Source: Dehalococcoidia bacterium (GTDB lineage: Bacteria > Chloroflexota > Dehalococcoidia > GIF9 > AB-539-J10). Taken from it: a stretch of 64,000 nt of DNA. The notes under the pieces are model-generated. The model was not told where the DNA came from, searched no databases, and saw nothing but the letters and a program-made list of their open reading frames with translations. Shown here in pieces: positions 13,923 through 17,999 of this stretch. Each line of letters starts with the position of its first letter. Position 1 is the stretch's first letter. The translations under genes and the position numbers were made by a program. The stretch spans positions 15,792-79,791 of the forward strand of contig JAUWOR010000008.1 of assembly GCA_030612025.1 (NCBI GenBank), given 5' to 3'.

Positions 13923-13958
13923 AACGTTGTAATTACATTCCGCACCGGCAGGGGTTTT
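13923..13958. repeat. cassette-boundary motif copy 1 (AACGTTGTAATTACATTCCGCACCGGCAGGGGTTTT)
   Basis: One of 4 same-orientation copies. Palindromic core TGTAATTACA at 13929-13938. Confidence 0.7.
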
Positions 13959-14151
13959 ACTACTACAGCGTTTCAGTTACTACAGCATTTCGCCTTACTG
14001 GGCTGCTAGTTCGAAGGCTCGAAGCTTCGAACAACGTTTCGCGAATAAAAGATGTTTGCCTTAGCAAATTTGGGCGAGAGTACATAGCACCGTAGCCTTT
14101 TAGCCGCCATTATACGTAGCGAACGAAATAAAATAATCAGCCAGGGAATGC

Positions 14152-14352
14152 CTATTTCCCAAGCACTTTATATACCGGTTTTATTGCTGCTAACACAAAA
14201 ATTATAGCATACCAATACCAATCTAAACTGAGCAGTGGTCCCCAAAGTTTCGCTATCATTAAAATACAACCTGCAACACTCAGTTTCATGAACTGGATAT
14301 CAATCCAATTCAACTTTTTTATTTTTGCATCTGCCAAAGTTCCAAAAGTCAT
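14152..14352 (-). CDS. small (66 aa) membrane protein
   Basis: AAGGAGG sits 9 nt upstream of the ATG. Two hydrophobic helices. Confidence 0.6.
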   Translation of the reverse strand: MTFGTLADAKIKKLNWIDIQFMKLSVAGCILMIAKLWGPLLSLDWYWYAIIFVLAAIKPVYKVLGK

Positions 14353-14511
14353 ATTTTTATACCTCCTTTCTATTTAAATTCAGCCTCTATTTATACTAAA
14401 ATTCAGGTGGTTTAAGAATTTGCCTCCCGAAGCCAATTGCGTATAACGTTTTCATGTGTTTGCGAAGTCCTAAAGGCATTTGGGCGAGTGAAGCGAACCG
14501 CAAACACGCTG

Positions 14512-14904
14512 TTAGGCAACGCTGTCCCGATAGTTCGATATCTCAACCAAATTGCCATTTGGGTCACGCACATAGATAGATTCAATAGGTCCCATAGCTC
14601 CCGTTCTCCTCACAGGTCCATCCACAATGTCAACATCACGTGACTTAATGTGATCTATCACATCCTCCAGAGGGATATGTGTTATCAAGCAGAAATCTTC
14701 CGCCCCAGGAGTGGGATTTAAGGCCTTTGGTTCGACCTCTTTTCCAACTTTATGAAGGTTAATCTTCTGCTCTCCGAATAGCAGCGCCTTTCGGCAATTT
14801 TCGAACGTTATAACTTGCATTCCAAGAACGGAAGAATAAAATTCACAGGTCTCCTCAATATCATGCACTGTGAGAACAAAGTGATCAATCCTATCAACCT
14901 TCAT
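14512..14904 (-). CDS. VOC (glyoxalase/bleomycin-resistance/dioxygenase) family protein
   Basis: 130 aa with [25 protein letters not shown], typical of a VOC N-terminal beta-alpha-beta-beta-beta module. Confidence 0.8.
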
Positions 14905-15072
14905 GCGTGTTCACCTCCAGGATATCGTCTAACAGCCATATAAACGAACTCTGGATTCGCCCAGTCCGCTGTGGCTTATCAAATCTTGGCATCTGTCACA
15001 GTAGCCGTCAAGCTAATTGCAACCACAATTGCAGGGCCCCTCATTATCTTCCTAACAGGGCCACTCCCCCCA

Positions 15073-15104
15073 AAAGCTGTAATTGCATTCCAGACGGACA
15101 TTTG
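15073..15104. repeat. cassette-boundary motif copy 2 (AAAGCTGTAATTGCATTCCAGACGGACATTTG), most diverged
   Basis: Core TGTAATTGCA at 15078-15087. Lies 34 nt downstream of the marR stop. Confidence 0.55.
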
Positions 15105-15137
15105 TGGATAATGTGATTGAAGTGTATTTCCTCATTG

Positions 15138-15575
15138 TCAACTGAACCCTCTTTGTTTAAATGCTGCAGCATTCTCGGCCATCTTCTTCAGGAGGTCAAG
15201 GGCAAGCTGTCTTTCATTCTCTGTAAATCCGGTGGCCAGACCTTCAGTCCAGTGTTCTAAAGCTCTTTCTATCCTGGGCACGACGTCTTTGCCTTTAGCT
15301 GTCAGAGAAAGCCTGTAAAACCGCTTGTCCTGGGAATCACGGTTTTTCGCCACATATCCTAGCTCCACCAGCTTCTTAATTGCTCGCGCCGTCGTCGTTT
15401 TATCCATGCCGAGTGCTTCACTCAATTCGTCCTGGCTCAATCCATCCTGCTGATAAAGAACACGGATAAAGGGCAAATGACCTCCCTTGACATCGAGTTC
15501 AGCAAACTCTTTGTCTATAAAACTACGGCTGTACCTGTGAATGATAGAGACCCACCTGCCTAATGACTCGTTCAT
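15138..15575 (-). CDS. MarR family transcriptional regulator
   Basis: 145 aa with a winged HTH (LSQDELSEALGMDKTTTARAIKKLVELGYVAKNRDSQDKR). Lies 6 nt downstream of the MATE gene. Confidence 0.85.
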   Translation of the reverse strand: MNESLGRWVSIIHRYSRSFIDKEFAELDVKGGHLPFIRVLYQQDGLSQDELSEALGMDKTTTARAIKKLVELGYVAKNRDSQDKRFYRLSLTAKGKDVVPRIERALEHWTEGLATGFTENERQLALDLLKKMAENAAAFKQRGFS

Positions 15576-15581
15576 CGTGTA

Positions 15582-16943
15582 TCACCCCGCTTCCATTAGA
15601 ATTTGCTGTTTCTTGAACTCACGCATCTGGGGAATAACCATAGCAAGCGTTATGATAAAGGATAATGTATCGGCGATTGGGAATGATAGCCATACCCCAT
15701 TAAGTCCGAAGAAACGTGGCAGAATGAATACTAAAGGGATGAGAAAGAGAATCTGCCTGGATGTAGAGAGAATGAATGTTTGAATTGGTTTTCCAATTGC
15801 CTGAAATATGGTTGCGCCAACAATCTGAAATCCGACCAGCCAAAGTGCCATAAAGATAAGCCTTATTGCATGGGTGCCTTGGGATATAAGGGCAGCATCC
15901 GTGGAAAAAAAACGTATAATCGGCTCAGCGAAAAGGAGGATGATTAAGACAGCACCGACGGAAAAGGCCGCCGCAATAATAACGGACCGGCGTATTACTT
16001 CTATTCCCCTGTCATAACGCCTCGCACCATAGCTGAAACCAAGGATTGGCTGGAGTCCCTGAGCAATACCCATATTCGGCATTACGGCAAAGTGCAGCAC
16101 CCGATGTACCACACCAAAAACTGCTATGGAGACATCCCCACCGTAAAAACCAAGAGTCCTGTTAATAATGACAGCAATAAAGCTTCCTGCTGCAGTCCTT
16201 ACAAACACACCGAATCCTATGGCTACAATTTCCTTGACTACAGTCCGCTCAAGAATAAAGTTTTTCACCCGAATTCGTAGGGAACTCTTTCCAGAGAGAA
16301 AATAATGCGCCAGATACAGGGTGGTGACAACATGTGCAATAACCGTTGCAATTGCAGCCCCCCGGATACCCATGCCAAGGGCAAAGATGAAAACTGGGTC
16401 AAGCGCAATGTTTAAAAGAGCACCTATAAACATGCTTATCATTGCCACCCGGGCATTGCCTTCCGCCCTGATAATAGCATTGGCTGCCATAGAGAATCCG
16501 TGGAACACCACGCCGAGAAGAATTATATCCATGTATTCTTTTGCGTAGGGTAGAATGGTGTCCGTAGCTCCAAAAAGACGGAGAAGGAAAGTGCTTCTTG
16601 ACAATGCCACAACCGCTAACGTTCCCCCAAGAATAAGAATCAAAATTATGGCATTACCCAGTGTACGTTCCGCCCTTTTCATATTGTCAGCACCCAGGCT
16701 TCTAGAAATAAGGGAAGCTGCCCCTATTCCTACCATCAGCCCTATGCCCATTATTACCATCTGGATTGGGAAAACAATGGAAATGCCGGCGATACCCAGA
16801 ATACCCACTCCTCGACCAACAAAAATCGCATCTACGACGTTGTAGAGAGACATAACGAACATGCCTGCCATCGCTGGGAGAGAGAGTTTCCACAGCAATG
16901 TTTTTATGGGTTCGCTAGCTAGAGCTACACTGTGGTCATGCAT
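15582..16943 (-). CDS. MATE family efflux transporter
   Basis: 453 aa, ~12 TM helices, MATE-like N-terminus (LLWKLSLPAMAGMFVMSLYNVVDAIFVG). Confidence 0.85.
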   Translation of the reverse strand: MHDHSVALASEPIKTLLWKLSLPAMAGMFVMSLYNVVDAIFVGRGVGILGIAGISIVFPIQMVIMGIGLMVGIGAASLISRSLGADNMKRAERTLGNAIILILILGGTLAVVALSRSTFLLRLFGATDTILPYAKEYMDIILLGVVFHGFSMAANAIIRAEGNARVAMISMFIGALLNIALDPVFIFALGMGIRGAAIATVIAHVVTTLYLAHYFLSGKSSLRIRVKNFILERTVVKEIVAIGFGVFVRTAAGSFIAVIINRTLGFYGGDVSIAVFGVVHRVLHFAVMPNMGIAQGLQPILGFSYGARRYDRGIEVIRRSVIIAAAFSVGAVLIILLFAEPIIRFFSTDAALISQGTHAIRLIFMALWLVGFQIVGATIFQAIGKPIQTFILSTSRQILFLIPLVFILPRFFGLNGVWLSFPIADTLSFIITLAMVIPQMREFKKQQILMEAG

Positions 16944-16965
16944 AACTTATTCAAATCCCTTCATC

Positions 16966-17013
16966 AGTTGTAAATACAACTGATTATATCAAGGCATAGT
17001 TGTAAATACAACT
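16966..17013 (-). promoter_or_regulatory. two identical 16-bp palindromes AGTTGTAAATACAACT (probable MarR operators) bracketing a TATAAT -10
   Basis: Boxes at 16966-16981 and 16998-17013, 32 bp centre to centre. The minus-strand TATAAT (16983-16988) lies between them, 23-70 nt upstream of the MATE start. Confidence 0.65.
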
Positions 17014-17095
17014 AATCTTTGAAGTAGCCTTCCAGTAGAATTTGAGTGGAAGGCAGAAGGTTATTTATCTCCCAGCCAGAACCATTTCCCGCTCT

Positions 17096-17129
17096 AAAGT
17101 TGTAATTACATTCCGCATGGGCACGGATT
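17096..17129. repeat. cassette-boundary motif copy 3 (AAAGTTGTAATTACATTCCGCATGGGCACGGATT)
   Basis: Core TGTAATTACA at 17101-17110. Abuts the stop codon (17129-17131) of the 17129-17812 ORF. Confidence 0.7.
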
Positions 17130-17812
17130 CATGGGTACATGCTCCTTAGTTCCTCTACAATTCTCCTCTCTTCCGTAAGTTTCTCTCTTTGCTCCGGGGT
17201 TAGGCGAGTTTGGTATTCAGCAAGCTTACGGTGTAACCTTTCCATCTCCTTACCGGGTTTCGCCCCCTCGAAACCAGACATTGCAGGAGTTTCTTTAACT
17301 CCTTCGGCTAGGCCGATTTTAGCAGCAATCCTCGGATACCATGATGGTCTAAAAAACCCGGCAGTTAACCAGTCTCCAAACCGCACTATCAGAATGTCAA
17401 TATACCGCATAGGTGGAAAGAACCACCGCACAACCCCGCCTTCCTGACCTGTCACAGCACGCAATAGGGTGCCTCCTCCAGCATACAAGAAACATAGCGT
17501 GAGAAGAAAACAGGGCAGGCAGAGGATGACGAGGATCAGACTCCAAAAACCACCAGTGCCAACCGCACCAAAGATAAAGCTGAAGATAAGGCCAAACATA
17601 GACCAGACAAAGGCCAATACCAGGTAACCAGTGCCCCTGTACTCAGGTGGCTCTAGTTCGCTTAGTTTGGCGCCTCTTACTTCTGGATTAACGGCACTAT
17701 GTTTGCCGGCAACAAATAATAGAGCAGCAGCCGTCAATGAGAGGCCAGCAAGAATAGCAAAGAAAGAGGGAGAAAGTAATCTACCCAGTCTTACTAAGAT
17801 TTCCATGGCCAC
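17129..17812 (-). CDS. membrane protein (4-5 TM) with charged coiled C-terminal tail, unknown function
   Basis: 227-aa ORF with GGAGG-like AGGGAGGTGG upstream of the ATG. Confidence 0.6.
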   Translation of the reverse strand: MAMEILVRLGRLLSPSFFAILAGLSLTAAALLFVAGKHSAVNPEVRGAKLSELEPPEYRGTGYLVLAFVWSMFGLIFSFIFGAVGTGGFWSLILVILCLPCFLLTLCFLYAGGGTLLRAVTGQEGGVVRWFFPPMRYIDILIVRFGDWLTAGFFRPSWYPRIAAKIGLAEGVKETPAMSGFEGAKPGKEMERLHRKLAEYQTRLTPEQREKLTEERRIVEELRSMYP

Positions 17813-17964
17813 CTCCCTTCAAACTAGCTCCGACAAATATTTAAGGATAGCATAACAAATTTGAATGTGATGGAGCTAGTTGCAATCTCTATCGCTGAGC
17901 GATTTGACAGAATTTTGCGGATGAAATGATTACCCTAGTCCCTTCTCAAACAACTTTCCACCCC

Positions 17965-17999
17965 AACGTTGTAACTACATTCCGCACGGGCAAGGGTTT
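17965..17999. repeat. cassette-boundary motif copy 4 (AACGTTGTAACTACATTCCGCACGGGCAAGGGTTT)
   Basis: Core TGTAACTACA at 17970-17979. Lies in the divergent intergenic region between 17812 (-) and 18123 (+). Confidence 0.7.

Follow-up and report, generated by a model that had tools for sequence, protein, structure and literature searches.

What role is played by a short sequence that recurs, always in one orientation, at the borders of neighbouring gene segments? The question is raised by a 64,000-nt stretch of DNA from a Dehalococcoidia bacterium (GenBank assembly GCA_030612025.1, contig JAUWOR010000008.1, positions 15,792 to 79,791 of the forward strand), which is called the window here and which holds four copies of such a motif within a run of minus-strand genes. 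The sequence-only reading, made by a model from the letters of the window, had proposed that the copies are recombinase target sites, attC-like or dif-like, in a cassette array, or else a shared operator of the MarR protein that the array encodes. In this work, the motif was found to belong to a longer element carried by many contigs, and its role as a segment boundary and its tie to recombination were upheld, whereas its assignment to the attC-like or dif-like sites was not. We tentatively prefer the explanation that the elements are junction sites of mobile gene cassettes, recombined by a dedicated recombinase that is encoded elsewhere and is not linked to them, and we regard this as possible rather than probable.

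A conserved element of about 58 nt

The motif is described here as read on the gene (minus) strand, and positions are counted from the T of TGCGG, which is position 0. Alignment of 96 non-redundant copies gave the consensus gATGAAcCCcTGtcCG TGCGGAATGTA(A/G)TTACAAC (T/G)TTGG AGAGGGAGGtgGT, which spans about 58 nt, so that the length of about 35 nt first given to the motif was too short. The short form of the element is gATGAAcCCcTGtcCG-TGCGGAATGTA(A/G)TTACAAC-(T/G)TTGGAGAGGGAGGtgGT, and a 27-nt core from -8 to +18, yCTGyCCG-TGCGGAATGTARTTACAAC, is near-invariant. Four copies, all on the minus strand and spaced 869-2023 nt apart, lie within the 64 kb. A scan with a 25-nt consensus and up to three mismatches recovered copies 1, 3 and 4 (0.00 expected from 100 shuffles), the 14-nt core TGTAAYTRCATTCC matched four copies exactly, and an nhmmer profile built from the 96 copies, all of which come from other contigs, found these four only, with E-values from 1e-7 to 3e-15 (Table 1). 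The first description, which had placed four same-orientation copies here and no other in the window, is confirmed.

The window locus recurs at 89-97% identity in two loci from genomes (L023 and L026) and in four from metagenomes (L118, L124, L130 and L133), and the single copies have fared differently there. Copy 4, with the core variant TGTAGTTACA, stands between the divergent Thr-aldolase gene and an open reading frame (ORF) of 227 aa, and it is conserved in L023, L026, L130 and L133. The end of the 227-aa ORF and the start of copy 3 are separated by 12 nt, and the earlier remark that this copy abuts the preceding stop codon was correct. The orthologue of copy 3 is intact in L026 and has 2-4 core substitutions in L023 and L133; despite these changes, the 65 nt to its right are almost invariant among the orthologous loci. 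Copy 2 is degenerate, with the sequence TCTGGAATGCAATTACAGC. A further decayed stretch, called copy 0, was read directly from the alignment and is not detected by nhmmer; with low confidence, its sequence may represent a true copy of the motif.

The next minus-strand start codons follow the four copies at 158, 158, 174 and about 177 nt. The near-constant distance that had been pointed out therefore exists within the window, but it does not extend to the family, where downstream ORFs on the same strand begin 7-840 nt away. The spacing of about 160-175 nt is thus a local feature, because neither strands nor distances are fixed in the family. The 8-nt inverted partner ascribed to copy 1 is also present, at 14031-14038 and not at 14027-14034; a search around the family copies did not find such a partner as a family feature.

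Distribution and genomic context

The family scan suggested with the first description found the motif on 12 Dehalococcoidia MAG (metagenome-assembled genome) contigs and on at least 120 metagenome contigs. An exact search with a degenerate 22-mer in one genome per species gave 15 matches, 12 of which are these contigs of Dehalococcoidia/Chloroflexi, with the same flanks; the remaining three (Treponema and two Bacteroidales) lack conserved flanks and look like chance. A scan of the same kind in the JGI metagenomes returned the at least 120 loci, nearly all of which show conserved flanks by eye. A phage origin of the motif was considered and rejected, as the IMG/VR viral scan yielded one chance match only, inside a phage gene. 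Each MAG holds at most four exact copies, and one MAG has copies on two contigs. Between lineages whose motif core stays near-invariant, the DNA of comM is only about 67-69% identical.

Copies of the element are intergenic: only 1 of 95 lies inside an ORF of at least 150 aa, although 66% of the sequence belongs to ORFs of this size (p about 1e-43). Adjacent copies have the same orientation in 26 pairs and opposite orientations in 4, or about 17 vs 4 after orthologous loci were collapsed by hand. Direct arrays comprise three copies in 1.1 kb (L099), four in 3.5 kb (L150) and five (L026/L130), and the copies within them are separated by ORFs of 70-270 aa. The right-hand neighbour gene is on the opposite strand in 51/76 cases and on the same strand in 25/76, at distances of -11 to 840 nt; for the left-hand neighbour, the corresponding figures are 44/69 and 25/69. 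No copy overlaps a tRNA or tmRNA gene. A role in replication polarity, such as that of KOPS or Chi, was also examined and dismissed, since orientation showed no link with GC skew (19 against 27). We found no paper that contains the motif sequence and none that joins Dehalococcoidia with integron and attC; judged by title or abstract, none of the integron and genomic-island papers returned by broader searches describes the motif site.

Variable segments and independent flanks

Comparison with the relatives of the window locus showed that some segments which are present in one strain and absent from another end at or beside motif copies. The largest in the window, a block of 4.86 kb (9117-13971), is absent from L023, L026, L118, L124 and L130, where about 26 nt take its place. 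One of its ends is 11 nt beyond copy 1 and the other is exactly at position 0 of copy 0, which is present in decayed form in the relatives as well; copy 0 is taken to mark this end of the block because the homology of the relatives resumes exactly at position 0. Also missing from L023 is 14043-15075; here the junction immediately follows TTACAGC (+18) of copy 2. In L026 (6777-7235) and L130 (2348-2807), the aldolase gene and the DegV gene are separated by about 460 nt, which include a GC-rich hairpin as well as two degenerate copies, and the window interval (19212-19302) has 91 nt with a right-flank-like remnant only, GTGCTGACTGACCACATAGGTAACACTTGAGGCG on the minus strand. Copies 2, 5 and 6 are degenerate, and orthologous copies decay individually.

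Two further loci extend this pattern beyond the window locus. A clean insertion was found in L073, which has a 918-nt segment absent from L025, L115 and L160; the segment encodes an XRE-type helix-turn-helix protein and a 143-aa ORF, which have their own promoter. Direct copies stand on both sides of it, and the 24 nt that correspond to -6 to +17 are duplicated. The selB-tatC spacer is a second hotspot, in which L150 has 1.86 kb and 2.5 kb that are absent from L012 and L088. The 1.86-kb block is bounded by copies with the variant core GGAGTCACGAC, and the 2.5-kb block ends in a decayed left half.

The left and right flanks of the 27-nt core assort independently of each other. The flanks of 118 copies fall into 71 left and 77 right families in 87 combinations; 12 left families are joined to at least two right families, and 6 right families to at least two left ones. 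Pairs that have only the left flank in common are identical through +18 and at background level from +19. The stretch common to L021 and L148 runs from -8 to +165 (174 nt) at 100% identity, with nothing shared beyond it.

Genes of the array and origin of its segments

The gene content had been described correctly: Pfam recognises the Glyoxalase/VOC, MarR and MatE proteins, and the two proteins labelled as membrane proteins have no Pfam match. Coordinates are collected in Table 1. In the order of transcription, the MatE gene precedes the MarR gene. The segments with the 227-aa ORF and with the MATE-MarR pair are present in every orthologous locus, and the part with the 66-aa ORF is shared by L026, L118 and L130 but missing from L023. 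These three parts behave as cassette units. The VOC gene and the 4.86-kb block represent additional, less orderly insertions, located at sites or close to them. The claim that the copies delimit three modules holds for the three parts; the VOC gene has to be taken out as a separate insertion, and the first module (66-aa ORF and VOC) is composite because the VOC gene is a later insertion that is not bounded by the motif.

Over 14456-14933, the VOC gene segment shows 82.6% DNA identity to contigs that are otherwise unrelated and lack the motif. Apart from a near-identical copy on an 840-nt contig, its nearest relatives are 78% identical, and the motif was absent from two contigs that carry relatives at 76% and 78% identity. 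Judged from these comparisons, the VOC gene is likely a recent horizontal acquisition. The contigs with VOC-like genes (L169-L173) have different neighbours, among them a methyltransferase fragment, DUF498 and an ABC transporter, and the closest relatives of the protein are annotated as coming from Archaeoglobales, Deltaproteobacteria and NC10.

The degenerate comM fragment at the start of the array, noted in the first description, is real: it is an inverted, frameshifted copy of the 5' end of the intact comM gene (342-1874), which is 13 kb away. Ribosomal-protein, tuf and tRNA genes lie between the two. Three unrelated contigs have a motif copy near comM, namely L067, L112 and L097; in L097, 35 nt separate it from the start codon. 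The fragment probably came with the 4.86-kb block from a relative that had a copy upstream of comM.

Table 1 Coordinates of the features in the window (aa, amino acids; position 0 is the T of TGCGG)
Feature	Coordinates	Strand	Remarks
Copy 0, decayed	9086-9116	-	Minus-strand sequence TGCAGCTACTATAGTGAATCTTATCAAGAGG; identity to the core consensus about 48%
Window-specific variable block, 4.86 kb	9117-13971		GT4 glycosyltransferase, GH15 hydrolase, comM fragment, copy 1
comM 5' pseudogene fragment	13571-13752	-	182 nt; 79-83% identical to 353-533; frameshift
Copy 1	13903-13960	-	Position 0 at 13944; intact core; nhmmer E = 6e-12
Segment between copies 2 and 1	13972-15052	-	66-aa ORF (14152-14352, no Pfam match) and VOC gene
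VOC (glyoxalase-family) insertion	14424-15016	-	Flanked by direct GCAATTG..GCAA repeat; window only
Copy 2	15053-15110	-	Position 0 at 15094; nhmmer E = 9.5e-8
Segment between copies 3 and 2	15111-17075	-	MATE efflux gene 15582-16943; MarR gene 15138-15575; own promoter
Two AGTTGTAAATACAACT operators	16966-16981, 16998-17013		Within the MATE-MarR promoter region
Copy 3	17076-17133	-	Position 0 at 17117; nhmmer E = 3.4e-15
8-codon micro-ORF M-N-P-C-P-C-G-M-stop	17106-17132	-	Over the left half of the motif; GTGA start in L026
Segment between copies 4 and 3	17134-17944	-	ORF 17129-17812, 227 aa, no Pfam match
Copy 4	17945-18002	-	Element of about 58 nt; position 0 at 17986; nhmmer E = 1.4e-14
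Sigma70-like outward promoter	18017-18045	+	TTGACC-17 nt-TAAACT; abuts the left end of copy 4 and aims at the Thr-aldolase gene
Second short repeat family	185-212, 21971-22024, 23507-23527, 34805-34873, 38031-38168, 50751-50785, 58409-58477, 62495-62525	both	See Other features of the window

A possible cassette mechanism and the evidence against it

If the elements are junction sites, an exchange inside the 27-nt core would fuse the left part of one site with the right part of a second, and the two mapped junctions (L023 and L073) would place the exchange point at about +16 to +18. DNA between direct sites would be released as a circle with a single site, this circle could re-enter at any other site, and the outcome would be arrays of one orientation such as that in the window. 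We infer that a dedicated site-specific recombinase, with its gene elsewhere in the genome, would carry out the exchange, and that the core would stay constant since only intact sites keep recombining. A dedicated enzyme is favoured because the core is near-invariant across lineages while individual copies decay; likewise, the decay of the core of copy 3 beside an invariant right flank fits sites that are kept by continued activity and not by a local function. In its full form, the proposal is that Dehalococcoidia may have an integron-like cassette system with a simple, double-stranded site of about 58 bp and a 27-nt core, without folded attC hairpins, in which sites would have been seeded at many intergenic positions between core genes, outward promoters would often be brought along, and the recombinase would be encoded elsewhere, perhaps as a tyrosine recombinase of the housekeeping type. 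This fuller version is slightly more speculative than the junction-site explanation from which it is built.

Several observations weigh against the idea of mobile cassettes joined by their own recombinase. No recombinase is linked to the sites: neither the window nor the stretch of about 10 kb upstream contains one, as had been said of the immediate neighbourhood, and none recurred when 900 ORFs were clustered. A regex screen of the 900 ORFs for tyrosine and serine recombinases found two isolated cases only, in L065 and L119, and when the family of the L119 tyrosine integrase (4962 homologues) was followed into six loci, the motif was in none of them. Nor do the arms of the site form inverted repeats of one another, as would be usual for a simple site of a tyrosine or serine recombinase. 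The exchange point is bracketed only to the conserved core, where RecA-type recombination on identical repeats of 24-27 nt would leave the same footprints. Some indels do not end at a copy, namely the VOC insertion, which begins 57 nt downstream of the core of copy 2 and is not bounded by the motif, indels of 431 nt and 1437 nt, and the right end of the 174-nt module of L021 and L148. Lastly, 27 of the 96 copies are accompanied by an outward sigma70-like promoter, vs 2-8 in control windows; it is on the opposite strand, its -35 box begins about 31 nt from position 0, and it may point to a role in transcription instead.

In the left flanks, this promoter, of the form TTGACA-17 nt-TAAACT, often has GGAC ahead of its -10 box, and many right flanks hold a similar string, GGACTA(G/A)(G/A)GTAAC. 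Inspection by eye for extracytoplasmic function (ECF) and sigma54 promoters at the motif gave no fit. In L119 (950-3075), a tyrosine integrase of the 392-aa type starts about 420 nt to the right of a copy, and a second integrase fragment is at the contig end. In L065 (8286-11715), an OLD-like TOPRIM gene and a large serine recombinase replace the right half of the motif beyond +23. Either integrative elements use the site occasionally in these two cases, or the proximity is a coincidence.

Alternative explanations

The main rival is a regulatory one, in which a transcription factor present throughout the lineage would bind the core as its operator or upstream activating site, just ahead of promoters, and homologous recombination between dispersed identical sites would give rise to the indels and the shuffled flanks as by-products. 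It would account for the outward promoters just described, with their near-fixed offset, and for the 10-bp palindrome in the core, where an imperfect 16-mer dyad, AGTTGTAA/TTACATTC, matches the MarR operator at 12-13 of 16 positions. Many neighbours also look like stress or proteostasis genes, judged from translations and not from Pfam (HtpX/LemA, peptidases, PPIases, DedA and nitroreductase), to which the window adds efflux and VOC genes. Yet a promoter at the fixed offset is missing from all window copies but one, the orientation and distance of neighbouring genes are otherwise not fixed, and the orientation of the array is kept even where gene orientation flips (in the window and in L026). 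Moreover, orthologous copies decay beside conserved non-coding sequence and degenerate copies are common, an asymmetric conservation of 58 nt far exceeds what an operator needs, and unrelated housekeeping genes are also among the neighbours, namely hycI/hypA (from Pfam) and selB, tatC, rsmI and acetyl-CoA synthetase (from translations). We therefore consider a regulatory module unlikely. The narrower version in which the copies are operators of the MarR protein of the array is extremely improbable. The resemblance on which it was founded is real, as the core and the two AGTTGTAAATACAACT operators at 16966 and 16998 agree at 12-13 of 16 positions with equal half-site spacing, and the MarR protein may accordingly cross-bind the motif, to judge from this similarity. 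However, at least 130 copies of the motif are known, from more than 70 unrelated contexts, and the MarR/MATE pair was found only at orthologues of the window locus (the MarR and MATE clusters comprise 5-6 loci among about 130 motif loci), so that such an operator is unlikely as a general explanation. The true MarR operators lie 100-150 nt from copy 3, other copies show no enrichment of the operator hexamers TACAAC and GTTGTA in their vicinity, and the conserved flanks outside the 16-mer would be left unexplained.

A second group of explanations treats the element as a repeat or as a transcript. A non-autonomous repeat, similar to a miniature inverted-repeat transposable element (MITE) or to REP, might be spread by a transposase encoded elsewhere, with the core as its most conserved inner part and two flank families as its arms, namely family A (about 110 nt left of the core) and R7 (about 165 nt right of it). 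Strictly intergenic copies would be expected of such a repeat, modules without an ORF do recur in unrelated contexts (such as the fully identical module of L021 and L148), family A is joined to six right flanks, and L083 and L148 carry A, core and R7 together. Repeats of the MITE or REP type are marked by terminal inverted repeats or a palindromic unit, by target-site duplications and by tens to hundreds of copies per genome. Inspection of the alignments, however, revealed neither terminal inverted repeats nor target-site duplications; in the sequences covered, the copy number is low, with the four copies of the window all within 4 kb and few per MAG; many copies, including copies 2 and 3 of the window, have genes directly against the core and no arms; and the L073 insert holds two genes, with a duplication of the core and not of a target site, which makes a dispersed repeat improbable. 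A transcribed element, be it a riboswitch or leader in a 5' untranslated region, a small RNA or an 8-codon leader peptide (M-N-P-C-x-C-G-M-stop), is very improbable. The position of each window copy 158-177 nt upstream of a start codon on its own strand would suit it, as would the purine-rich GGAGAGGGAGG after the core, the in-frame ATG/GTG/TTG at -15 in about half of the copies, the TAA/TAG at +9 in 83/96, and the ATGA by which the ATG of the copy 3 micro-ORF overlaps the upstream stop. Against it stand the right-hand neighbours on the other strand (51/76, at widely varying distances), the lack of any supported consensus structure or covariation, and the lack of an Rfam match at gathering thresholds or at E = 10. 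Mutual information revealed only subfamily linkage of -3 with +11, and an outer stem, TCCCT/AGGGA vs TCTCT/AGAGA, failed when counted on 96 copies. The leader peptide MNPCxCGM in particular was rejected, since it is found in only about half of the copies, many others having an in-frame stop just upstream and no start codon, and since the nucleotide conservation is not codon-like, third codon positions (e.g., G at -1) being as conserved as first positions.

Comparison with known systems

The attC sites of integrons consist of imperfect inverted repeats, R''-L''...L'-R', and their bottom strand folds into a hairpin of 57-141 nt. Integron cassettes are mostly promoterless, co-oriented single ORFs with the site at the 3' end. 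Clusters of attC sites without an integrase are known as CALINs (Cury et al. 2016, PMC4889954), and integrons have been reported in Chloroflexi (PMC4889954). A canonical array of this kind, with attC sites that are folded as single strands and recombined by the IntI integrase, resembles the motif arrays in having same-orientation sites less than 4 kb apart (0.4-2.5 kb), small and often unannotatable genes between them, cassettes that vary among close strains and no adjacent integrase. There is also a likeness at the junction. On the opposite strand, the mapped junction reads CCAAAG↓TTGTAA (the arrow marks the junction), which is reminiscent of the integron G↓TTRRRY, and the breakpoints at +16 to +18 fall there; depending on the exact position, (A/C)↓GTTGTAA or G↓TTGTAA, the match to GTTRRRY is 5/7. 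This resemblance is a lead and not a result, because the bracket lies in sequence common to both partners. There are also differences. Folding of the four copies as single-stranded DNA, on both strands, was no better than that of shuffled sequences (z-scores -1.6 to +1.3), RNAalifold on 71 copies found 0 pairs, and no inverted GTTGTA partner, as would be needed for R''/R' pairing, was present within 400 nt, nor was GTTGTA enriched around TACAAC. In the motif, it is the primary sequence that is conserved, in two unequal stretches of about 35 nt and about 23 nt that flank the junction, and the longer stretch is on the wrong side for attC. The sites are found at many intergenic loci between core genes and not at one platform, and the cassettes often have their own promoter and lie in either orientation. 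The attC-like assignment was therefore abandoned, and a canonical integron array without integrase appears to have almost no likelihood.

The dif site has 28 bp, with two 11-bp arms that form an imperfect inverted repeat around a 6-bp spacer. Like the Xer/dif-type sites of IMEX elements integrated at dif and of the pdif modules on Acinetobacter plasmids, the motif is a short double-stranded site with two different arms and wide phylogenetic conservation, with a recombinase that would be encoded elsewhere and with small gene modules that lack a recombinase between the sites. Its left arm, GTGCGGAAT, loosely recalls GTGCGCATAA, the XerC arm of E. coli. However, the motif has no ATAA-N6-TTAT dyad and no inverted 11-bp arms: its only palindrome is the 10-bp TGTAATTACA, and its outer arms, CCGTGCGGAA and CTTTGGAGAGG, are unrelated. 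It also occupies many loci per genome instead of a single terminus site, and its copies are direct repeats, whereas pdif modules alternate in orientation. A dif or terminus function of the window was likewise rejected, as GC skew is negative in all but a few of its 4-kb bins and the cumulative skew falls steadily, without a turning point or switch. Because both the hairpin test and the tests of dif architecture failed, the motif is not a canonical attC site and is not dif-like.

Other arrangements offer partial parallels. In the ssrA islands of Dehalococcoides, tandem units are found at the attachment site (PMC3146451). Such tandem islands, like those of SCC at the integration site of rlmH (ISS), have direct repeats of the attachment site between units, many of which lack their own recombinase. 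Their repeats copy the 3' end of the target gene, however, and at least one unit carries an integrase, whereas the motif is free-standing, intergenic and present at many loci with no integrase. The Correia/NEMIS and REP/BIME repeats are strictly intergenic, sometimes carry an outward promoter and can seed rearrangements, all of which recalls the motif; unlike them, the motif is low in copy number in the sequences covered, has no terminal inverted repeats or palindromic structure, is clustered in direct arrays and bounds inserts that carry genes.

Other features of the window

Some further observations concern other parts of the window and its surroundings. The 3' 45 nt of the tRNA-Lys(CTT) gene (35842-35917) are duplicated at 98% identity over a distance of 4.9 kb (30979-31023 vs 35844-35888), and between the repeats lie the genes of a 1023-aa NosD/beta-helix protein and of a response regulator. 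No integrase was present among the ORFs that were checked, and the region looks like a decayed island at tRNA-Lys. A second family of short dispersed repeats (..TGTCATTGCGAGC.., ..GCGAAGAATCT..), unrelated to the motif, is present in both orientations and often near tRNA genes. Just upstream of window position 1, L010 (2634-9536) has a block of minus-strand genes directly upstream of the intact comM and no motif copy. These include an MmeI-like type IIL restriction-modification enzyme, HicA/HicB and several unknowns, so that the block looks like a defence islet adjoining comM. At 49928-55492, a restriction-modification pair resembling type III (an N6_N4 methyltransferase and a ResIII helicase) stands beside a PIN / AF2212-like toxin-antitoxin pair.

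Significance

The 27-nt core can be used as a search marker by which variable regions are located in MAGs. The motif likely causes breaks in assemblies, as several contigs end at or near its copies, e.g., in L003, L004 and L060. If the regulatory explanation were true, the element would define a lineage-wide regulon with an unusually long conserved binding region, which would also be new. If, on the other hand, the elements are recombination sites, they would represent a new variant of the cassette-array idea outside the known families, and the cassette concept would extend beyond attC-based integrons. Dehalococcoidia are abundant in the subsurface and in sediment and have small, streamlined genomes, and their gain of accessory genes is known mainly through islands linked to tRNA genes and ssrA. 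Recombination at the motif would give them a second, finer-grained route of gene flow, by which blocks of one or two genes could be slotted in and out at many places.

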